DNA from: Methanomicrobiales archaeon
Lineage (GTDB): Archaea > Halobacteriota > Methanomicrobia > Methanomicrobiales > JACTUA01
Direction of reading: 5' to 3'
Assembly: GCA_028678665.1 (NCBI GenBank)
Contig: JAJRDA010000001.1
Coordinates: 1 to 38,321 of the forward strand
DNA length: 38,321 nucleotides
The notes beneath the pieces were generated by a model. That model ran no database searches, was not told the DNA's origin, and saw only the letters and a program-made list of their open reading frames with translations. The translations under genes were made by a program, and so were the position numbers. This document shows positions 2 through 14,099 of the stretch, one piece after another (position 1 is the stretch's first letter; each line of letters starts with the position of its first letter).

Positions 2-1894
2 ACGAGCACGGACACGGACCGGAAGACGGCCAGGAGGGGCGACATGGTCAACGTGAGCATCCGGCTGATCGCAGGGGAAGCATCGCCCATGGACGGCATG
101 ATCCTGCTTGACCGGAGCGGCGACTCCATGTACAGCTGCATGAAATCTGTCGACGGTTCCTGCCAGTACAACCGCTGGGACCTGGCCAAGGAGGGGGCGC
201 TCGCCCTGGTGGGTAATGCGTCGGCGAACAGTGGGATGGGCGTCTCCTGGTTCGCGACCCGGGGGGGTATCGAGCACACCCTGGACAACAGCCCGGTCCA
301 GGTGGCCAATGATATCATGGCCCTGGATTACGTCCCGTACGGGTACACACCGGATCCGTATACCGGCCCGGGCACGGGTGGCATTGCCGGCATGTCCAAC
401 CTGCGGGATGGCCTGTACAAGACCATCGATTACCTGGAGGGAGTTCCGCATGAGAACCTCAGGACAAAGGCGGTGATCGTCTTCACCGACGGGCTGTACA
501 ACTGGTACGGCAACCCCATCGCCAACGGGCGGGGTACTGCCCTGAAGAGCAAGGCCGCCTATGTCACGTGCTTCAGCGGGATCTGCACAGGTGCGGGTTT
601 GAATCCCTACAATCCGGCGCTTGTGAACACCTATGTCGAAGATGCCATGTGGTGGGAGGGCTCCGATTGCCAGGACGGATCCTGCTACATCCCCACCCAG
701 GATTACACGTTCTACAACGAGGTCCAGGAGAACCACCCGAACGGAGGGTGGCTGAACTTCACGGGCCTGAAGTGGAACGGCATGGACCACGCGGGCGACC
801 CGGCCCACATCGCCTACCCGACCTACACCGGGAATGGGGAGAGCTATTACGGATTCTGGCCTGCCAGGTACGGCTGTACCGGCTGTGCCCAGTGCGGCTA
901 CATCCACTGCGATGAGAATATCAACCCCGCCCAGTACCAGCTGGACGTCTGTGCCCCCGAATGGCCGTATATCGATGCCAGTGGAGTATCCCACGGGGAC
1001 TGCGAGCAGACCAAGCAGAACATGACCATCTTTGCCCGGGACTCCAGTATCCGCCTCTATACGGTGGTCCTCCGGACCGATGCGGATCCCGACCTGTCAA
1101 TGCCCACGAGCTATGCCAACGCCGACGACATGATGAAGATCCTGGCCTACAAGACCGGCGGCAAGTACTACCCGGTACACGACAGGGCGGACCTGTACGC
1201 GGCCATTGACGACATCACCCGCGATCTCTCCTCTGCGGCAACGCAGGACCTCACCATGGAGATCGAGGACACCTCGGTGGACCTGAACTCGCTCCTGACC
1301 GTGAATACCAACAACGAGGTCTTCACCCACCACCACTTTGACGGTATCTCAACCACCACCCAGTCATGGGACCAGAATGGAAATCCCATCCAGGGGATTA
1401 CCACCATTTCGGAGGCGCAGGACTGGCTCGCCACCCACCGGCTCAACTACTTCGTGGATGACCTCGATGTGGGTGACACCTTCCAGATGAACTACACCGT
1501 CCAGGTAAACGCCAGGGGCCGGATCAATGCGATCGGACCGGACTCGAAAGTGACCTTCAAGGACGGGTACGAGCTGTCCCTGCCCCCCACGTACATCGAC
1601 GTGGAGAACAACCCCCCGGTCTTTGACGAGGTGGGGGAGCAGACCGTGGACCGGGTGGAGACCCTGACCTTCACCGTCTCAGCCACGGATGCGGATAATG
1701 ATCCCCTGACCTATGGATACGTCAGCCTCCCGCTGGGTGCTGCCTTTGATATCGACACCCTGACATTCGAATGGACACCCGAGGACAAGGGCTTCTACGA
1801 GGCCACCTTCTCGGTGACCGACGGGATGGCCACCGTCACCCAGACCGTTCCCATCACCGTGACGGACCTCAGGCCCAAGATCATCCTCCGGTGA
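2..1894 (+). CDS. Secreted vWA-domain protein, 5'-truncated by the window edge; paralogue of 2166..5555; C-terminal cadherin-like (He_PIG/dystroglycan-type) Ig domain
   Basis: The frame is open from nt 2, with no stop before the listed ATG at 44. The blocks LLDRSGDSM (MIDAS-like), VIVFTDGLYNWYG, IRLYTVVL and TGGKYYPVHDRADLYAAIDDI align one-to-one with the vWA core of the next gene. NNPPVFDEVGEQTV...FTVSATDADNDPLTY...FEWTPEDKGFYEATFSVTDG is a cadherin-like repeat. The protein ends PKIILR-TGA. Confidence 0.8.
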   Translation, partial: TSTDTDRKTARRGDMVNVSIRLIAGEASPMDGMILLDRSGDSMYSCMKSVDGSCQYNRWDLAKEGALALVGNASANSGMGVSWFATRGGIEHTLDNSPVQVANDIMALDYVPYGYTPDPYTGPGTGGIAGMSNLRDGLYKTIDYLEGVPHENLRTKAVIVFTDGLYNWYGNPIANGRGTALKSKAAYVTCFSGICTGAGLNPYNPALVNTYVEDAMWWEGSDCQDGSCYIPTQDYTFYNEVQENHPNGGWLNFTGLKWNGMDHAGDPAHIAYPTYTGNGESYYGFWPARYGCTGCAQCGYIHCDENINPAQYQLDVCAPEWPYIDASGVSHGDCEQTKQNMTIFARDSSIRLYTVVLRTDADPDLSMPTSYANADDMMKILAYKTGGKYYPVHDRADLYAAIDDITRDLSSAATQDLTMEIEDTSVDLNSLLTVNTNNEVFTHHHFDGISTTTQSWDQNGNPIQGITTISEAQDWLATHRLNYFVDDLDVGDTFQMNYTVQVNARGRINAIGPDSKVTFKDGYELSLPPTYIDVENNPPVFDEVGEQTVDRVETLTFTVSATDADNDPLTYGYVSLPLGAAFDIDTLTFEWTPEDKGFYEATFSVTDGMATVTQTVPITVTDLRPKIILR

Positions 1895-1905
1895 TCCCAC
1901 GGCTA

Positions 1906-1945
1906 TTCCCCGGGGAGATGGGTTCTCCTGTCCTCCCCCGGGGAA
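1906..1945 (+). other. GC-rich inverted repeat (hairpin) just downstream of the first vWA gene
   Basis: TTCCCCGGGGAG (1906-1917) and CTCCCCCGGGGAA (1933-1945) are near-perfect reverse complements with a 15-nt spacer, starting 12 nt after the TGA. No strong oligo-T follows. Confidence 0.35.
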
Positions 1946-2029
1946 ATCAGCTGGTTCTGTTTGACCCGGCGGCGTTCCGGGGATGAAGAGGCAGGAACCA
2001 ACCACCTTCCAGAAACGTCCCTTTCAGAG

Positions 2030-2165
2030 AAATAAACGTTTTACATGGCCATTATTCCAAAAAGGGAGATAAATAGAAATTATTTAAATATATATGCAAT
2101 ATTCTTGACACACACGATTTGCCAATATTTATATACAATGGGCATCTAATAACTCCCAAACGAGT
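2030..2165 (+). promoter_or_regulatory. Very AT-rich promoter island with several TATA-like boxes upstream of the second vWA gene
   Basis: The stretch aaataaacgttttacatggccattattccaaaaagggagataaatagaaattatttaaatatatatgcaatattcttgac...aatatttatatacaatggg is far more AT-rich than the flanks. The archaeal TATA-like words TTTAAATATATA and TATTTATATA lie about 30-90 nt upstream of the start. Confidence 0.5.
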
Positions 2166-5100
2166 GTGGTCGAGATGATACTCTCACGCCTGTGCTGTAT
2201 CCTGGCAGCCCTGGTACTGCTCACCAGTGCCGGAACAGCGCTTCAACTGGACATCGCGGGCGAGAAGGAGTGGCTGGTGGCCGGCGGAGACACCGCCGGG
2301 CTCAGCCTGGTGATCAGCGGAGGGAGCAGCCCCTTCACCATCACCGCGACAGTCCCCCCTGATGGCCTGTGCACAGTGACCCCCGCCTCATTCACCACCT
2401 CCTCCATTCGACCCGACCCGATGCAGGTCAAGAGCAAGGAGAAGAGTGGCGTCTGCCTGATTGACATCAAGGTAACCGATGCGGGTGGTAATTCCGTCAC
2501 CCAGCAGTTCTCGCAGAAGATCGACCACACCACACCGGGGTATGCGGGCGGAATCGCACCCCAGGGAGCCACCGTAGGCACCGTTGTTCCGGTGAAGGTA
2601 TGGCTCCAGGACCGGTACCATAACATCGTGGATAACCGGAATATCGTCGAGACGGTGGGTTTCACCACCTATGGCAGTTCCGGTTTTGTGGACGGCCCCT
2701 CCACAAATCCAGACCTCATGGTGCAGACGACCACAGCACCGGTGAATATGGATGGAGTTGTGGAAATCCAGTACTATGTGGGAGAATATGTCTCCAAAAA
2801 CTATATCACCTTCACACCTCCCGCCCCTCTGGTGCCCGGTATCCTGATCCTCGATGGGATCCCGAATGGGGTGCCAGCCTCTATAGTCACCTATATTGTC
2901 CCCGATGCCGCCACACCCCCCTGGGTGTATGCGGATGGGAGCAGCAAATTCACCATCACCTACTCGGTCTCTGACACCAACGGATTTCCTGTCCAGGCGG
3001 CCGGGATCACGGGTTTCACCAGCGAGGGGAAGTCCTTCTCGCTTGTGACGAATGAGAACGGCCAGGCCAGCTACTACTACGGTCCCTTCTCCATGGCAGG
3101 GCAGCACACCATCACCGCTTCGCTGGATGCGAACTCCGCCGTGCGGGTGGTCGACCGGGTGGAGATCATCTCCATGGCGCCGGAACACCTGCTGGCCACG
3201 GGAAATCCCATCTCCATGCCCAGCCTTGATGTCAGCCCCGGCAGCACCTCCACCATCACAGGCAGGGTCAGTGACCCCAAGGGGAACCCGGTCTCCGGCC
3301 AGACGGTGACCTTCGAGATCACATCCGTTACCGCATCCACGAAAATGAAGAAGGATCCCTACCTCACCAGCCAGGGGAAGATCTACGCCGAGAAGAAGTC
3401 GGTGACCCTGGTCACAAACAACGACGGGATTGCCACCCTGCAGTTCATTCCGGGCGAGTTTGCGAAATCCAGGACGGATCCGGACTTTGACCCCTCGGCT
3501 GAAGGCACGGCCACCATCACGGCCACCTGGGGGTCCAAGACCGAGCCGATCACGCTCACCTTCAAGCGGACAGCCTACCTCTCCCTGGAGACCAAGGTCG
3601 AGCCCCTCCAGGTGCCGGTGGGAGGGACCTTTGATGTCACGGTGAACGTGACGGGGGACGGGTCGATGATGACCAGTTACCCCATCGAAGTGATGCTCGT
3701 CACCGACCGTTCCGGTTCCATGGAAATGAGCATGGGTGGACAGACCCGGTTCTACTGGGTGAAGCAGGCGTCGCATGCCTTCCTGGATGCCCTGAACCCG
3801 GGGAAGGACAGGGTGGGGCTCGTCTCCTACCACACCTGGGCCACCAAGGATCACGACCTCACCTCGGACTTCACCAGCCTGGGGACCACCATTGACACGC
3901 TGACGATACCCCGTGCCAACGACTGGATTCCCAACAAGGGCCCGGTGCGGCTCACGAACATGCGGGACGGGATCTTCAATGCCACCACCTACCTGAAGAT
4001 CTATGGCAGCAAGAGTGACAAGGTCAACAAGGCCATCGTGGTCCTCACTGATGGCGTCTGGAACTGGGGTGGCACCCCCCTGGCCAAAGGGAGGGGCTAT
4101 GCCGAGAAAACCCGCACGGTCGTCTGGGAAGACACCTACTTCGGGGCCAACTGCGCGTCAGGGTCGGCATGCCTCCAGAAGTATCGCACAGACAGTTTCT
4201 ACTGGCCGGGCGCCGTGTCCTTCTCCATGTACACCTACTACAACCAGGAGCTGTACAAGGATCCACAGGGCAACCCCGTCATGACGGATCCCGGCCCGCT
4301 GGCCTACAGCGGGGCAGGGCTTGGCCCGGCACACCGGTTCGACGGGCGGGATGGGAGCAACGGCTACCTCTGTCATCCCATCGTCCCCCTGAATAAGGAC
4401 CCGGGAGGACCGGCGTGGGACCCCAATATGTGCGTCAAGAATACCGGCATGTGCAACAGCGACATCGGATGCTATAGCAACGATAAATACCGGGTGGACG
4501 TCTGTGATAAAACCTATACCGGCACGGATTGCTCATCTTCCGAGCAGAACATGGCTGTCTTTGCCAAGAACAACCACATCCGGATCTATACCATCACCTA
4601 TGCAGAGAACTATGACCAGAATACCTTTGATGCGCCCTACAAGGACGTCGCGGCAGCCCTGACGGAACTCTCCGAGTCCACCGGTGGCAAGTACTACCAT
4701 GCGGCCACCGGAGCTGATCTGGAGAAGGTGTATGAGGACATCGCCGCCGACCTGATCACCTCCGCCGGCGTGGATACCGACGTCATGGCTGAATATGATA
4801 CCAAGTTCGCCAACCTCCTGCCAGGAGGATCGAAAGATAAAAAGGGATCAGAGGTCTTCGAGTACGTCGCCTCGGGGCCCGTTCCCGCTATCTCGACCGT
4901 GACCTGGAAGTGGGACAAGGCCAAGAAGCTGATCGAGGGTCCCACCTGGAAGAGCCAGCAACCCGAATGGAACATGAACCACCAGCTCTCGTACGACATC
5001 GGGTCCATCGAGATCGGGCAGAAGTGGTCGATGAAATACCGGATGCAGGCGAAGCAGGCAGGCACCTACGATGTCTTCGGGAGCGGATCCCTGCTCCAGT

Positions 5101-5555
5101 GGACGGACTGGGACGGTGTCGCCCAGTCGCTCGGCTTCCCGGAGACCCCGGTCACCGTGCTCGAACCCGGGACCCTGCCGATCGATGTCCGGCTCATCCT
5201 CTCGAACCTGCACACCGTGAACTCCGCGGGGGAGGTCACCGATCTGATCAAGGAGAACGAGCCCTTCACGTTCGTCTGGTCGCTGTACTTCACCAATACC
5301 GATCCCAACGGGAAGGCCAACCTGAAGATCCAGGTCACCAAAGATGATAACGGCTATGACGTGTCGGAGAACCTCGCCGATGCCAGGCAGCCCAAGAATG
5401 AATGGCAGGAGATCTCAAAGCCCTGGGATGGGCTCCCTATCGGCACATATACCGTGACCGTGTACGCACAGGGTGATGGCAACAACGCGGAACCGTTGCC
5501 TTTCACCTTCCACGTGGTGGCTGATCCCAAGGGCCCGAAGATCATCCTCCGCTGA
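2166..5555 (+). CDS. Large secreted cell-surface protein: signal peptide, Big_1-like Ig repeats, vWA domain with Cys-rich insertion, C-terminal beta-rich domains
   Basis: The N-terminus MVEMILSRLCCILAALVLLTSAGTA looks like a Sec signal; an alternative ATG lies at 2175. Invasin/Big_1-like repeats include YADGSSKFTITYSVSDTNGFPV, GRVSDPKGNPVSGQTVTFEI and NNDGIATLQFIPGE...GTATITATWGS. vWA motifs are VMLVTDRSGSM (DxSxS), VGLVSYHT, LTNMRDGI, IVVLTDGVWNWGG, IRIYTITYAE and TGGKYYHAATGADLEKVYEDIAADL. The protein ends PKIILR-TGA. Confidence 0.85.
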   Translation: MVEMILSRLCCILAALVLLTSAGTALQLDIAGEKEWLVAGGDTAGLSLVISGGSSPFTITATVPPDGLCTVTPASFTTSSIRPDPMQVKSKEKSGVCLIDIKVTDAGGNSVTQQFSQKIDHTTPGYAGGIAPQGATVGTVVPVKVWLQDRYHNIVDNRNIVETVGFTTYGSSGFVDGPSTNPDLMVQTTTAPVNMDGVVEIQYYVGEYVSKNYITFTPPAPLVPGILILDGIPNGVPASIVTYIVPDAATPPWVYADGSSKFTITYSVSDTNGFPVQAAGITGFTSEGKSFSLVTNENGQASYYYGPFSMAGQHTITASLDANSAVRVVDRVEIISMAPEHLLATGNPISMPSLDVSPGSTSTITGRVSDPKGNPVSGQTVTFEITSVTASTKMKKDPYLTSQGKIYAEKKSVTLVTNNDGIATLQFIPGEFAKSRTDPDFDPSAEGTATITATWGSKTEPITLTFKRTAYLSLETKVEPLQVPVGGTFDVTVNVTGDGSMMTSYPIEVMLVTDRSGSMEMSMGGQTRFYWVKQASHAFLDALNPGKDRVGLVSYHTWATKDHDLTSDFTSLGTTIDTLTIPRANDWIPNKGPVRLTNMRDGIFNATTYLKIYGSKSDKVNKAIVVLTDGVWNWGGTPLAKGRGYAEKTRTVVWEDTYFGANCASGSACLQKYRTDSFYWPGAVSFSMYTYYNQELYKDPQGNPVMTDPGPLAYSGAGLGPAHRFDGRDGSNGYLCHPIVPLNKDPGGPAWDPNMCVKNTGMCNSDIGCYSNDKYRVDVCDKTYTGTDCSSSEQNMAVFAKNNHIRIYTITYAENYDQNTFDAPYKDVAAALTELSESTGGKYYHAATGADLEKVYEDIAADLITSAGVDTDVMAEYDTKFANLLPGGSKDKKGSEVFEYVASGPVPAISTVTWKWDKAKKLIEGPTWKSQQPEWNMNHQLSYDIGSIEIGQKWSMKYRMQAKQAGTYDVFGSGSLLQWTDWDGVAQSLGFPETPVTVLEPGTLPIDVRLILSNLHTVNSAGEVTDLIKENEPFTFVWSLYFTNTDPNGKANLKIQVTKDDNGYDVSENLADARQPKNEWQEISKPWDGLPIGTYTVTVYAQGDGNNAEPLPFTFHVVADPKGPKIILR

Positions 5556-5582
5556 TCCTTTTTTTCCCTTTTCTCCCTTTCC
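5556..5582 (+). terminator. Oligo-T archaeal terminator after the vWA gene
   Basis: TCCTTTTTTTCCCTTTTCTCCCTTTCC follows the TGA immediately, with a T7 run at 5559-5565. Confidence 0.5.
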
Positions 5583-9657: not shown

Positions 9658-10448
9658 GGCTCGCCTTCCGGCTCTCCTACCTGGGTGACCGGTTCTTCGG
9701 GTCGCAGCAGCAGCCGGACCAGAGAACGGTGGAGGGCGAGGTGATCGGGGCCTGCCGGAGGCTGGATCTCTTCACCGACTGGAGGGAGGCCCGGTTCGCC
9801 CTCGCCGGGCGGACGGACCGGGGGGTCCATGCCCGGGGCCAGGTCTGCGCCTTTGATACCCCTGCCCAGGACCGGGCCCGGGAGGTGCTGAACCTCCAGC
9901 TCCCCCGGGATCTCTGGTGCACGGGGATCACCGAAGTCCCGCAGGAGTTCCACCCCCGCCACGATGCCCGATCCCGTACCTACCGCTACCTCTTTTCGGA
10001 TCCGGACCTGGACACCGATGCCATGGACCGGGCCTCCCGCTCCTTTGTGGGCCGGTTCGACTTCTCGCGCTTTGGCAGGGTGGAGGGGAAGAATCCCGAA
10101 CGGGTGGTGCGGGAAGCCCGGGTCTTCCGGGAGGCCGGCTTTCCGATCTTCGAGGTCACCGCATGGTCCTTCCTCTGGCAGATGGTCCGTTCCATGGCCG
10201 GGGTGCTGGAAGCGGTGGGGAAGGGCGAGGCCGGGGAGGGGCGCATCCGGGAGCTGCTGTCCGATCCGTCAGGACCGCGGATGCCACCCGCCCCCGCCGG
10301 GGGCCTGATCCTCTGGGACGTGGACTGCGGCATCACCTTCCAGGAGGTCCCGGTGGATCACCGGACTCTCGACTACCTGACCTTCTTCCGGCGGCACCAC
10401 GTCCTGATGGGCCGGATCTGCCACGTGCTCCAGGAGAGGGATGGTTAG
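9654..10448 (+). CDS. truA: tRNA pseudouridine(38-40) synthase TruA
   Basis: The catalytic motif is GRTDRGVHARGQV. The other blocks are RTYRYLF, FVGRFDFSRF, and the start MRLAFRLSYLGDRFFGSQQQP. The start ATG 9654 overlaps the PHP stop (ATGA). The listed 8979..10448 ORF is an out-of-frame upstream extension. Confidence 0.85.
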   Translation: MRLAFRLSYLGDRFFGSQQQPDQRTVEGEVIGACRRLDLFTDWREARFALAGRTDRGVHARGQVCAFDTPAQDRAREVLNLQLPRDLWCTGITEVPQEFHPRHDARSRTYRYLFSDPDLDTDAMDRASRSFVGRFDFSRFGRVEGKNPERVVREARVFREAGFPIFEVTAWSFLWQMVRSMAGVLEAVGKGEAGEGRIRELLSDPSGPRMPPAPAGGLILWDVDCGITFQEVPVDHRTLDYLTFFRRHHVLMGRICHVLQERDG

Positions 10449-11512
10449 GCCGGGACCAGCCCGCGGCTCCTCAGCCACCGGTACGTGCCCGGGCGATCGT
10501 GGAGATGCCGCACGATGTAGTTGGAGACCTCCACGTTCCGGTTGTGCTCGTCCACCCTACGGTTATAATCTGACACCAGCCGGTTGTATTCCGCAGGGTT
10601 GCCCCTGACCCTGTCCATCTCTGCCTTCTTTGCCGCCAGCTGCTGTTCCAGGGAATCCACTGCATCATCGGCTGCGACAAACGCGGTATGTATCGCCAGG
10701 GTCTCACCGCAGGCCCCATAGGCCGTGGTCCCGCTTCCCACGGGGATGATCAGCGGATCTGACGAGAGCGTGGCGATTGCCCCCTCTATCCTTTCCGGCG
10801 GGATCCCGACGAGAGACAGGTTGGTGGATTCCAGGAACGCAAAGGAGGTATTGCGGTACCCGCACCCGTCCGCGGTGATCCCCACCGCCATGTGGTCCTC
10901 TGCATCGAAGACGAGGAGCGAGACCCGGTACCCTTCCCGGGAGAGGAGCCCCGCAAGGAGCAGGCTCTTGTCATCGCAGTCGCCGGTTCGTTCTGCAAAG
11001 GTTTCCACCGCGAAATGGGGTGGACCCCCCTTCTCCCGGTAGGGGAGGGACTGGACCCCCACCGCCATCAGCTCCAGGTACCGGTCACTACCCAGCCGCT
11101 TCTCATCGCGGATCCTGCGGAACTGGGAGAGGAGGTCCTGGTAGAACCCGTCCTGGTGCGGGTCGGAGAGGAACGCCAGGTAATAGCCGGGAACCCAGTC
11201 CGCGTCGGGGGTTCCCCGGGGAACGGATGCATTCTTCACCGCCCTCTGTGCCCCGTAGAAGACGGAGCCGTTGATGGGCACGGTGAGGGTCACGGTGCCA
11301 CCCTCGAATGCATACGTGAAGGTGACGGGGTGGGACGGGGCACCCTCAATGGGTTCGATGGAGGGGTACACGATCTGCGGCCGGATGCCGGGGAATACAC
11401 CCGTGCAACCGGCCGCCAGCAGGAGAAAGACGGTGGCGAGGACCGTGGTGAGGGCGATGTACTGCCTGTGCCGGCGGGGGAGGGCCCGGCTCCCCCGGGG
11501 GAAAGGATGCAT
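10445..11512 (-). CDS. Membrane-anchored (lipobox-like) transglutaminase-like cysteine-protease-fold protein with C-terminal coiled coil
   Basis: The N-terminus has basic residues, then the hydrophobic stretch IALTTVLATVFLLLAAGC (LAAGC lipobox-like). TGDCDDKSLLLAGLLSREGYRVSLLVF...DHMAVGI resembles the Cys/His core of transglutaminase-like domains. The tail LEQQLAAKKAEMDRV...YNRLVSDYNRRVDEHNRNV is heptad-like. Confidence 0.65.
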   Translation of the reverse strand: MHPFPRGSRALPRRHRQYIALTTVLATVFLLLAAGCTGVFPGIRPQIVYPSIEPIEGAPSHPVTFTYAFEGGTVTLTVPINGSVFYGAQRAVKNASVPRGTPDADWVPGYYLAFLSDPHQDGFYQDLLSQFRRIRDEKRLGSDRYLELMAVGVQSLPYREKGGPPHFAVETFAERTGDCDDKSLLLAGLLSREGYRVSLLVFDAEDHMAVGITADGCGYRNTSFAFLESTNLSLVGIPPERIEGAIATLSSDPLIIPVGSGTTAYGACGETLAIHTAFVAADDAVDSLEQQLAAKKAEMDRVRGNPAEYNRLVSDYNRRVDEHNRNVEVSNYIVRHLHDRPGTYRWLRSRGLVPA

Positions 11513-11656
11513 CGGATCAGATCTTGGGTCCTTTCACCCATAAACTGGGCGGCCCCGGGGATAGCTATATCGAGCTGCCCGGAGAGACTCCCCGTGCACA
11601 GCCGGCCGCAGGACGATCCCGGGTCTGGAGTTCCCTGCGGGCCGGGAACCGGAGGA

Positions 11657-12187
11657 ATGAGAAGGGTGGATATCAGGGATATCCCCGGGGAGATGCGGTG
11701 GCAGATTGCCACCCGCCTTGTCTCCAGCTTCCCGGTGCTCTACGACGGGGCGTTCCGGGAGGCGATGGGCGACCGGTACGATGAACTCGAGTACAATGTC
11801 TGGATCGAGGCCGGGAAGGAGGCCCGGGCGGTGGCCGACGGATTCGGCTTCCCCACCGGCACGGCGAAGGAGATCGCCGAGTGCGTGCGGGTGGTCACCA
11901 CCCTCTTCTTTGGCCTGGATGTCCGGGAAGAGGTCCTGGACATCTCAGGTACCCGCGCAGTGATCCTGACGAAGGGCTGCCCTTTCATGGTGCGGGGTGC
12001 GGAGCTGGGCGGACGGCCTGCCCACCTCTTCCCCAAGTGCATGGCCTTCTCCATGGCCGCCGTGGAGAGCCTGAACCCGAAGTACACCACCCGGTTCGTC
12101 CGGGCCATGTGCATGGGGGACTACCGGAACTGCGAGCTCACGATCCTCACGCAGGAGGAGGCCGAGAAGGAGGACAAGAAGCAGTGA
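11657..12187 (+). CDS. Hypothetical Cys-containing protein (possibly ATC-hydrolase/V4R-like fold)
   Basis: ATG 11657 is preceded by GGAGGA. The composition looks like real coding sequence. Cys motifs are GCPFMV, FPKCMAF and MCMGDYRNCELTI. The listed 10892..12187 ORF is an artefactual upstream extension antisense to the neighbouring gene. Confidence 0.55.
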   Translation: MRRVDIRDIPGEMRWQIATRLVSSFPVLYDGAFREAMGDRYDELEYNVWIEAGKEARAVADGFGFPTGTAKEIAECVRVVTTLFFGLDVREEVLDISGTRAVILTKGCPFMVRGAELGGRPAHLFPKCMAFSMAAVESLNPKYTTRFVRAMCMGDYRNCELTILTQEEAEKEDKKQ

Positions 12188-12269
12188 GGGGATGGCCGAA
12201 CACCGGTGGAATGACCAGAATACCGGACGGACCACCCGGAAGGATGGTGCTCCCCTGTTGATGAGGGTC

Positions 12270-14099
12270 CTAGGAATTTTCCCCGGTGGGGATCGCACCT
12301 CCCTGCACCAGCACCGGAGTGAGGGCCAGCCGGGCCAGGGTGGCCGGGGTGGGCCGGCCCTCGCCATCCCAGCCCCGGACGGCGTAATAGGCATCCAGGA
12401 GAGGCTGGCGCTGCCAGACCTGTCCGCGGGCGGGCCCCGAGGTCACCGGCTCCTGCAGGAGCCGCGGGGGGAGCGTGTCATCCGCCTTCCCGATACCGGC
12501 ACGGAGGTTGAAGATCTTCTGCAGGTTCCAGCACCGTTCCCCGGCGAGGAGGAGGGACTCCTCCGTCACCGGCAGGCCGGTTGCAGCCGCTGTCATCCGG
12601 GCATGCAGGGCCGGTGAGAAGACTCTGAGGGTGAACATGCAGATCCCCAGTGAGTCGATGGCCGCCGCCTGGTCCTGCATCCACTTCGTCCACTCCGCCT
12701 TCCCCTCCTGCGTGAGGGGATCGAGCCGCACCGGAATGCCGTAGACTTCGGGGTACGCCATGTTCCCGTACACGTGGCAGGCACCCCGCACCGACGTGGC
12801 GTACTCCAGGCCCTGCCCCACCAGGCCCCGGGGATCATAGCCGGGGAGCTCCTGGCCCTTCACGCTTATGGAGAACTCCGGGTGGCCACACCGGAGGGCA
12901 AACCGGTACGACCCTTCTGCCATGGCATCCCCGATGCCTTCCCGGTACCCGATCTTCCGGACCAGGTCCACCACGGCATCCCGGTCTCCGAACCGGATCC
13001 GCTCCGGGAGGTGCGCCTGCTCCGAGAGCTCCATGGCGCAGGCGATGGTGGCACCGGTGGAAACGGAATCCAGTCCCAGCTCGTTGCAGAGGTGGTTGGC
13101 CCTCGCGATCGCCTCCAGGCTGGAGACGCCGCAATCCGGGCCGAAGGCCCAGATCGTCTCGTACTCCGGGCCATGGATGGCCTGGTTCCCCACCCGCACC
13201 TCCCGGCCGCAGGCAACGGCGCAGGAGTGGCACCCCGTTACCCGCTCCAGGATCGTCTCCGCCATCTTCTCCCCGGTGATCCCTTCAGCTTCCGGGAAGT
13301 GGGATTCCCGGAAGTTGCGGGTGGGCAGGAGATGGGCCTCGTTGATGAGCCGGACCAGGTTGGCGGTCCCGTAGCGGTGGAGGGAGCCCTTCGTGATCCC
13401 GCTCCTTTCCACGAGATCCCGCATCTCGTCCCGCACCTGCTGGAACTGCTCCGGGTCCGGCGGCTCCCGGGAGAAGCTGCCCTTCGCCGCCACGGCCTTC
13501 AGCAGCTTGGACCCCATCACCGCCCCCAGTCCCCCGCGTCCTGCCACCCGGCCATGGTCGCTCACGATGGCTGCCATCCGGGAGAGGCGTTCCCCGGCAG
13601 GGCCGATGCAGGCCACCCGGGCTTTCGGCCCGGCGAGATCTTCCCGGACGCGGGCCATGGCATCGGATGTGGTCATACCCCAGGAGGCCCCCGCGTCCCG
13701 GATCTCTGCGGTGCCGTCATGGATCCACAGCACCGACGGCCGGGAGGCACGGCCACGGATGACCACGGCATCGAATCCCGCCCGCTTCAGCTCGGGGCCG
13801 AAGAACCCGCCGCAGTTGGACGAGGCGAGGGTCCCGGAGAGGGGGGAACGGGAGATCACGCTGTAGCGGGAGCCGAGGGGCATCCCCGAGCCGGTGAGGG
13901 GGCCTGCCGCCAGCACCAGCGGGTTTTCGGGAGCAAGTGCATCGGAACGGGGACTCATCTGGGACGACAGGATGCCCACTCCCAGCCCCCGTCCGCCCAG
14001 GAAGAGATGCTTCCACTCACCGGGAAGATCGGCCGGGGTGCAGCTTCCGGCCGTGAGATCGACCCGGAGGATCCTGTCCATGTAGCCCGGCACAGCCAT
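12270..14099 (-). CDS. aor: Aldehyde:ferredoxin oxidoreductase family (tungstopterin) enzyme
   Basis: The N-terminus GYMDRILRVDLTAG...FLGGRGLG is typical of AOR. Other AOR-family blocks are ACIGPAGE, CxxC-type GCHSCAVACGR, and EYETIWAFGPDCG. The start is taken at ATG 14099, with the TATA-like TTTATT about 30 nt upstream. Confidence 0.9.
   Translation of the reverse strand: MAVPGYMDRILRVDLTAGSCTPADLPGEWKHLFLGGRGLGVGILSSQMSPRSDALAPENPLVLAAGPLTGSGMPLGSRYSVISRSPLSGTLASSNCGGFFGPELKRAGFDAVVIRGRASRPSVLWIHDGTAEIRDAGASWGMTTSDAMARVREDLAGPKARVACIGPAGERLSRMAAIVSDHGRVAGRGGLGAVMGSKLLKAVAAKGSFSREPPDPEQFQQVRDEMRDLVERSGITKGSLHRYGTANLVRLINEAHLLPTRNFRESHFPEAEGITGEKMAETILERVTGCHSCAVACGREVRVGNQAIHGPEYETIWAFGPDCGVSSLEAIARANHLCNELGLDSVSTGATIACAMELSEQAHLPERIRFGDRDAVVDLVRKIGYREGIGDAMAEGSYRFALRCGHPEFSISVKGQELPGYDPRGLVGQGLEYATSVRGACHVYGNMAYPEVYGIPVRLDPLTQEGKAEWTKWMQDQAAAIDSLGICMFTLRVFSPALHARMTAAATGLPVTEESLLLAGERCWNLQKIFNLRAGIGKADDTLPPRLLQEPVTSGPARGQVWQRQPLLDAYYAVRGWDGEGRPTPATLARLALTPVLVQGGAIPTGENS

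Follow-up and report, generated by a model that had tools for sequence, protein, structure and literature searches.

Two secreted vWA proteins with the same C-terminal end

[quoted passage not shown] Both open reading frames (ORFs) terminate in PKIILR followed by TGA, as an earlier sequence-only reading of the window had noticed, and it is this short tail with which the present work is concerned. Comparison with homologous proteins identifies PKIILR as the form that a more general terminal motif takes in this lineage; the motif defines a multi-copy family of Sec-secreted, adhesin-like proteins made up of Ig-like domains and a vWA domain.

ORF A is 77% identical to a full-length paralogue of 801 amino acids (aa), encoded on contig C13 of the same genome, and Pfam recognises in it a vWA-like core plus a He_PIG/Big_9 immunoglobulin (Ig) domain. 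B matches PF13519 and PF00092 (vWA) and is composed of Big_1 repeats (PF02369, 48.5 bits with a cutoff of 34.9; Invasin_D3, PF09134, 33.5 bits with a cutoff of 33), the vWA domain and further beta domains, so the domain make-up first described for the two proteins is upheld. The residues of the metal-ion-dependent adhesion site (MIDAS; DxSxS...T...D) of the Rossmann-like vWA/integrin-A fold are all present in B, and A-type proteins have the MIDAS variant DRSGDS. The divergence of A and B outside the vWA core also proved real: their identity is 26% and is confined to the vWA domain and the post-vWA beta-sandwich, the only modules that the two proteins have in common. The vWA domain of B contains a long Cys-rich insertion (window 4071-4577, residues ~640-790), which is modelled with a predicted local distance difference test (pLDDT) score of 36-55 in both AlphaFold2 models of the protein; ORF A has such an insertion, too.

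Table 1. Features of the two window genes, and residues of the tail numbered backwards from the C-terminus (-1 is the last residue)
Feature	Window position	Strand	Details
ORF A, secreted vWA protein, PKD/He_PIG-type subfamily, 5'-truncated by the contig start	2-1894	+	630 aa visible
Last folded domain of A, He_PIG/Big_9 cadherin-like Ig	1607-1864	+	PF05345, E=1e-6, residues 538-621
Tail of A, P-K-I-I-L-R	1874-1891	+	TGA at 1892-1894
ORF B, secreted Big_1/vWA-type protein	2166-5555	+	1129 aa
Sec-type signal peptide of B	2166-2243	+	Sole hydrophobic segment; helix 6-20 in AlphaFold2 model
Big_1/invasin-like Ig domain string of B	2244-3665	+	Residues ~27-500, with conserved QKIDHxxP motif
vWA domain of B	3684-4763	+	MIDAS residues D514, S516, S518, T597, D629
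Post-vWA beta-sandwich of B	4767-5165	+
Last Ig-like domain of B	5193-5519	+	Final strand 1111-1118
Tail of B, P-K-I-I-L-R	5535-5552	+	TGA at 5553-5555
Tail position -7			K/R, 1.06 bits
Tail position -5			Y/K/F, 1.79 bits
Tail position -4			I in 190/210, 3.3 bits
Tail position -3			K/R/L/I, 1.91 bits
Tail position -2			L/I in 197/210, 2.6 bits
Tail position -1			E/R/Q, 1.67 bits; Glu in 43% of sequences
Positions -16 to -8 and -6			Variable, <0.6 bits each

Conservation of the tail and its link to the vWA core

The genome to which the window belongs (1.74 Mb in 185 contigs, 91% complete) codes for two further members of the family, a protein of 1007 aa that ends in KIIIR (C65:3-3026) and the paralogue on C13 (C13:17178-19583), which combines PKD, vWA and He_PIG domains with a signal peptide and ends in PKIIIS. 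The ending common to the four paralogues is KII(L/I)(R/S). A related tail is present on every full-length homologue of B that was found, in the form (K/Q/V)II(I/L)R in close homologues and (Y/F)I(K/R/T)L(E/Q/K/N/A), ILIR or IVIR in distant ones. The family was detected in 35 of 41 related genomes with 2-12 matches each, often in tandem arrays of 3-6 genes, and 20 family-bearing regions were extracted from these relatives. All of the 51 intact non-redundant family ORFs, which come from the genomes of about 30 relatives, end in x-I/M-x-I/L/M-x-stop; one further ORF lacks the tail and represents only the N-terminal part of a gene holding two in-frame TGA codons. An array member at L020:5531-8794 (G018:C4) is split by two in-frame TGAs, probably as a pseudogene, and the C-terminal part of it still ends in AQIRIQ.

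An exhaustive profile search recovered 1017 clusters at E<1e-30. The pattern [IMVL]x[ILMV]x-COOH ends 158 of the 173 diverged representatives examined (from clusters at 50% identity), and those that deviate from it are mostly fragments, or proteins in which the tail is recognisable with 1-20 residues added. The consensus of the tail is K/R-x-(Y/F/K)-I-(K/R)-(L/I)-(E/R/Q), or in a wider form K/R-x-(Y/F/K)-I-(K/R/I/L/V)-(L/I)-x-COOH, and the information content of its positions was obtained from a logo of 210 non-redundant sequences counted from the C-terminus (Table 1). In an alignment of 141 sequences, I1126 of B is kept in 132 (94%), the MIDAS residues are kept in 82-95%, and the last domain of B is poorly conserved, with a mean commonest-residue frequency of 0.25. 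The tail is under strong selection, in agreement with the sequence-only reading. Orthologues and paralogues throughout the order carry it, so that the claim withstands this side of the refutation test set for it. PKIILR, which was put forward as the conserved unit, is a genuine shared ending; the unit under conservation is, however, the wider motif, of which PKIILR is the variant of this lineage.

Arrays of the genus g3 (L016-L020, L025) have a layout of their own. The first family gene (tail KIKI-x) adjoins the AMP phosphorylase gene, and dcd and nrpR-like genes separate it from three further paralogues, the tails of which are QI(L/R)IQ, EIVI(R/H) or KIFIH, and I(L/V)IR, respectively. The class of tail tracks the position in the array across the species of this genus.

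Two architectures bear the tail, the Big_1 type and the PKD/He_PIG type, and their last domains are unrelated. In the PKD/He_PIG subfamily (P0175-P0186), whose members are 38-79% identical to the C13 protein, the ending is always [KR]I[IVRL][IVL]R, and the tail is not present in unrelated bacterial He_PIG proteins. The idea that it belongs to one specific terminal domain is therefore rejected; it is the vWA core that the tail accompanies, and not the terminal domain.

Outside of the family, the tail does not occur more often than expected. In the genome of the window, a relaxed tail pattern was found in the four family members and in 7 other ORFs, with ~5 expected by chance. A degenerate DNA pattern (Y-I-(K/R)-(I/L/M/F)-E-stop) gave 21 matches in the 41 relatives, 15 of which are ends of family genes; the remaining 6 are fewer than the 12 matches of a reversed-pattern control. 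The occurrence on other secreted proteins that was anticipated for a functional tag is thus not borne out in this genome and the 41 relatives, and a general sorting tag across cargo families is discarded. The absence of the tail from other kinds of secreted protein disfavours a general sorting tag read by a dedicated enzyme, and its exclusive association with the family favours a docking or assembly strand that is intrinsic to this family. Relatives of the C-terminal third of B are present in 18 genomes of the Methanomicrobiales, and one weak match was obtained outside the order in a sample of 151 genomes of the phylum. Within the sample searched the family is confined to the Methanomicrobiales, its members being mostly from metagenome-assembled genomes.

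Membrane anchors, structure models and gene neighbourhood

A hydropathy scan detected a signal peptide and otherwise no membrane-spanning segment in 50 of 52 family members. No model of NCBIfam or Pfam covers the tail, and no CTERM sorting model matches. The motif, membrane helix and basic cluster of archaeosortase targets are lacking, and by their ends and their hydropathy the proteins also lack the motif, helix and charged tail of LPXTG sortase substrates. With no hydrophobic segment beyond the signal peptide and no match to a curated model, the tail is unlike the PGF-CTERM and PEF-CTERM signals, and the sequence-only reading was right in setting it apart from them.

B was modelled twice as a single chain by AlphaFold2, from alignments of 24 and 70 sequences, with a mean pLDDT of 77 and 84, respectively. 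Both models consist of a confident string of beta-sandwiches and the vWA domain, and in both the last strand ends at residue 1118. Residues 1119-1129 are modelled as coil beside the confident last domain, with a pLDDT of <50 and ~60. The terminal extension is thus predicted to be unpaired in the monomer, as is the case in donor-strand systems. With respect to the acceptor groove of donor-strand polymers, all domains of B are modelled as closed sandwiches, as judged by secondary structure only. Among solved structures, B is closest by sequence to vWA domains of the BatA/BatB kind and to Mfa5, a tip protein of type V pili; in a fold search with the whole model generic strings of the Ig/macroglobulin type dominated, and Mfa5 was the only informative match.

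In 9 of 10 loci that hold one or two family genes, the gene directly upstream, which has the same orientation, codes for a protein of ~470 aa, and in most lineages of the order such a gene precedes the ancestral family gene (seen across L013-L032 and in L040; for example L040:3664-5058 and L028:846-2243). This protein, hereafter the PEGA-repeat anchor, carries a signal peptide and about five CarboxypepD_reg/PEGA domains, with a membrane helix and a basic tail at its C-terminus. The ancestral gene order comprises a DUF3821/PGF-CTERM protein, AMP phosphorylase, the PEGA-repeat anchor, the vWA family gene or genes, dCTP deaminase, an NrpR-like regulator and CetZ, the last on the opposite strand. 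A Methanoculleus record (L040) has the same gene order with mer and mtd nearby, which fits a transcriptome study (PMC12008871) that reports upregulation of an operon of a VWA protein with mer, mtd and CetZ when a Methanoculleus-type methanogen is mechanically disturbed. The DUF3821 protein, encoded two genes upstream of the anchor, matches PF18204 and is probably an S-layer-type archaeosortase target; large DUF3821 proteins with a PGF-CTERM signal are encoded at L033:44-2599, L034:932-3802 and 10093-13077, L035:3-2381 and L040:1-523. The anchor gene is single-copy in 25 of the 41 relatives, the genus of the window among them, where the C65 gene's orthologue (70% identity) comes directly after it. 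We consider the PEGA-repeat anchor a candidate receptor of the family proteins.

No candidate enzyme conserved next to the family genes was found in the neighbourhoods examined. AMP phosphorylase, dCTP deaminase, the NrpR-like regulator and CetZ were set aside as conserved synteny only, being housekeeping genes, with CetZ in convergent orientation; the described association of FtsZl1 with a vWA protein (PMC2875224) does not apply, the neighbour here being CetZ. Three ORFs of 390-470 aa in the genome of the window (C42:11215-12384, C4:26219-27541 and C145:607-2031) weakly resemble the anchor, with E-values of 1e-20 to 1e-26. Each closes with a linker rich in Pro and Thr, followed by a hydrophobic helix and a short stretch of basic residues, and they are other membrane-anchored proteins with beta-sandwich repeats. 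A distant family member, P0012 (tail TFIRLN), is found in a surface-protein context that differs from the ancestral locus, convergent to a cluster that encodes small DUF7287, DUF7288 and DUF7289 proteins and a 971-aa PKD protein (L042:12235-17853).

Proposed function of the tail and comparison with known systems

We tentatively propose that the tail is an exposed terminal strand, by which the proteins are clipped non-covalently to a partner in trans. The Ile at position -4 and the Leu or Ile at -2 would face inward at a fixed distance from the free C-terminus, forming a short amphipathic beta-strand that lies outside the protein's own fold. Such a strand could add in trans as an edge strand to a partner, and the docking would keep the proteins at the cell surface, or assemble them there, with neither a covalent nor a lipid anchor. 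The partner may be the PEGA-repeat anchor that is encoded directly upstream in most lineages, the S-layer-like DUF3821/PGF-CTERM protein or another copy of the family. We infer the docking, and its possible partners, from the conservation and terminal position of the tail, its link with the vWA core, the lack of an anchor, the lack of docking in cis in the models, and synteny. In a more specific version, speculative and somewhat unlikely as it stands, the pentapeptide might be a novel type of surface-retention signal in archaea, a minimal clip that plugs the anchor-less vWA adhesins into a dedicated PEGA-repeat stalk, or into the S-layer where the stalk has been lost; this would be a two-component display system specific to the Methanomicrobiales, with the arrays of paralogues as a set of exchangeable heads.

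Several observations weigh against docking in trans, and in particular against docking on the PEGA-repeat anchor. No anchor gene was found in the assembly of the window, in which a contig breaks exactly at the expected site. All 10 genomes of genus g3, one of them 98% complete, are without the anchor, yet they have 4-5 tailed genes, and in G023 and G039 the anchor is present without a detectable family gene. These mismatches imply that the anchor cannot be an obligatory receptor, and its candidacy as such is weakened. Mutual information between the tail columns and all others, after average-product correction, gave weak and scattered covariation signals, with a maximum Z of 2-4, and an unpaired five-residue end in AlphaFold2 models is weak negative evidence.

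The tail may instead have a structural role in cis, as an edge strand that completes the C-terminal domain of the same protein or as a hairpin with the final strand of that domain, kept for folding or stability and left unplaced by AlphaFold2. The sequence that precedes it, a strand followed by a polar or Pro/Gly loop of 3-6 residues, is compatible with a hairpin, and there is a faint hint of covariation of position 1127 with 1036, 1038 and 1040, which belong to the strand 1034-1042 of the last domain. However, the same kind of tail is found on unrelated last domains (He_PIG-type versus B-type), it is conserved far above any core residue of those domains, and both models, one of which is confident overall, leave it without a pairing strand and at low pLDDT. 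A role in cis is, in our judgement, unlikely.

Self-assembly is a special case of docking in trans. The tail would act as a donor strand that enters an Ig-like or post-vWA domain, or its carboxylate or Glu would bind the MIDAS metal of a neighbour, and fibres or a lattice would result. Terminal donor strands are known from archaeal threads, tafi and cannulae (PMC9715654, PMC11821415, PMC12518558), and the exclusive association of the tail with the family and the tandem arrays of 3-6 paralogues are in line with such an assembly, but the models show no evident incomplete fold or open groove, and the family is single-copy in many genomes, so that an ordered hetero-assembly is unneeded. As to binding of the metal, the MIDAS is largely intact, Glu is the most C-terminal residue in 43% of the sequences, and the free carboxylate always lies one residue past the Leu or Ile; against this, the MIDAS is degenerate in some tailed members, and the last residue varies even among orthologues. 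On balance we regard self-assembly as quite unlikely.

Improbable to a similar order is a signal for sorting or processing, with a dedicated protease, transpeptidase or secretion factor that would read the pentapeptide, much as sortase and archaeosortase signals are read, and cleave or attach the protein. While the strict position of the tail relative to the free C-terminus and the lack of any other anchor would suit a signal of this type, and the PGF-CTERM protein of the same neighbourhood indicates that C-terminal sorting systems exist in these organisms, the pattern counts given above (7 other ORFs with ~5 by chance in the genome, 6 with 12 in the control in the relatives) show that other protein families do not carry the tail. 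Moreover, no candidate enzyme is conserved beside the genes, and the combination of motif, membrane helix and basic cluster that marks archaeal sorting signals is lacking. We hold this explanation to be quite unlikely.

At the DNA level, 20 of 21 bases from the Lys codon through TGATCC are identical between A and B, which could point to chance identity or to a recent gene conversion restricted to the 3' ends of both genes. In the codon alignment, however, the identity comprises AAG ATC ATC CTC CG(G/C) TGA TCC only; in the 13 codons 5' of the shared stretch 14 of 39 bases match, and the sequences past TCC are unrelated. Because the codons of the motif are the preferred ones of this genome of 64% GC (AAG in 74% of Lys, ATC in 82% of Ile and CTC in 45% of Leu codons), the DNA identity of A and B adds nothing beyond the peptide. 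As the identity does not extend past the motif on either side and codon preference explains it, there is no conversion tract; the same motif moreover closes hundreds of homologues that have diverged and belong to other genera and families, and chance and gene conversion can both be dismissed. The sequence-only reading had named a conversion local to the 3' ends as an event that would overturn its claim, and this is not what happened. The DNA strings it quoted are present, with coordinates that were one base off (they occupy 1872-1897 and 5532-5558 instead of the stated 1871-1896 and 5533-5559), and the near-identity is real, but codon bias explains it and it is not independent evidence. The stop context TGATCC is found in 3 of the 4 family genes of the genome (window 1892-1897 and 5553-5558; C13:19581-19586) and is also the commonest one among the family genes of relatives, with 5 of ~50, which is probably due to chance.

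Retention of adhesins on methanogens, little described beyond the PGF-CTERM/archaeosortase route, bears on how these cells aggregate in syntrophy, flocculate and form granules in anaerobic digesters. Almost all of the Methanomicrobiales genomes sampled contain the present family, often with 3-12 copies, and a determinant of five residues that is as well conserved as the metal-binding site provides a handle by which a receptor could be found. Should the tail indeed be a signal for retention or assembly, it would also serve as a tag of very small size for displaying proteins on methanogens.

Neither our literature search nor the curated family libraries yielded a description of the family or of its tail. 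Display that is non-covalent and free of an anchor is already known, but an archaeal C-terminal determinant of this sort with five residues is not described. The best multi-domain solved relative is Mfa5 of Porphyromonas gingivalis (PDB codes: 6tnj and 6to1), with E=1.7e-18 and 8.5e-17 by sequence and, by fold, a template modelling (TM) score of 0.38 on the target for 6to1. Like the members of the family, Mfa5 is a large secreted Ig-domain adhesin with an inserted vWA/MIDAS domain that has extra arms. Mfa5, however, is attached via a type IX secretion system (T9SS) C-terminal domain of ~80 aa, whereas the family has a tail of five residues, no membrane helix and an archaeal host without sortase or T9SS. 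The same build of Ig and vWA domains is found in RrgA, GBS104 and PitA, the vWA adhesins at the tips of sortase-assembled Gram-positive pili, which are attached through an LPXTG signal, a membrane helix and a covalent linkage made by sortase. The archaeosortase signals (PGF-CTERM, PEF-CTERM and VPXXXP-CTERM) are, like the tail, C-terminal determinants on archaeal surface proteins, but they are tripartite, and the tail has none of the three parts. To our knowledge, every archaeal C-terminal sorting signal described so far combines a motif with a membrane helix and a cluster of basic residues.

A short terminal beta-strand is also a feature of Sulfolobus threads, Mth60 fimbriae, haloarchaeal tafi and Pyrodictium cannulae. 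In archaeal donor-strand filaments the terminal strand is free in the monomer and completes the sheet of the neighbouring subunit (PMC9715654, PMC11821415, PMC12518558). These donor strands are N-terminal and longer, and are borne by small subunits of a single domain, the Ig fold of which is visibly incomplete, whereas the tail of the family is C-terminal, has five residues and is carried by proteins of ~1000 aa in which no open groove was detected. A two-component display at the envelope is known from Sulfolobus, where the membrane-anchored stalk SlaB holds SlaA. SlaA and SlaB have no sequence relationship to the proteins studied here, and the pairing of family gene and anchor gene is not universal in the order; the family is furthermore of a multi-copy adhesin type and not a lattice protein. 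What the two systems have in common is an anchor-less outer protein encoded beside a stalk of beta-sandwich repeats that is membrane-anchored at its C-terminus.

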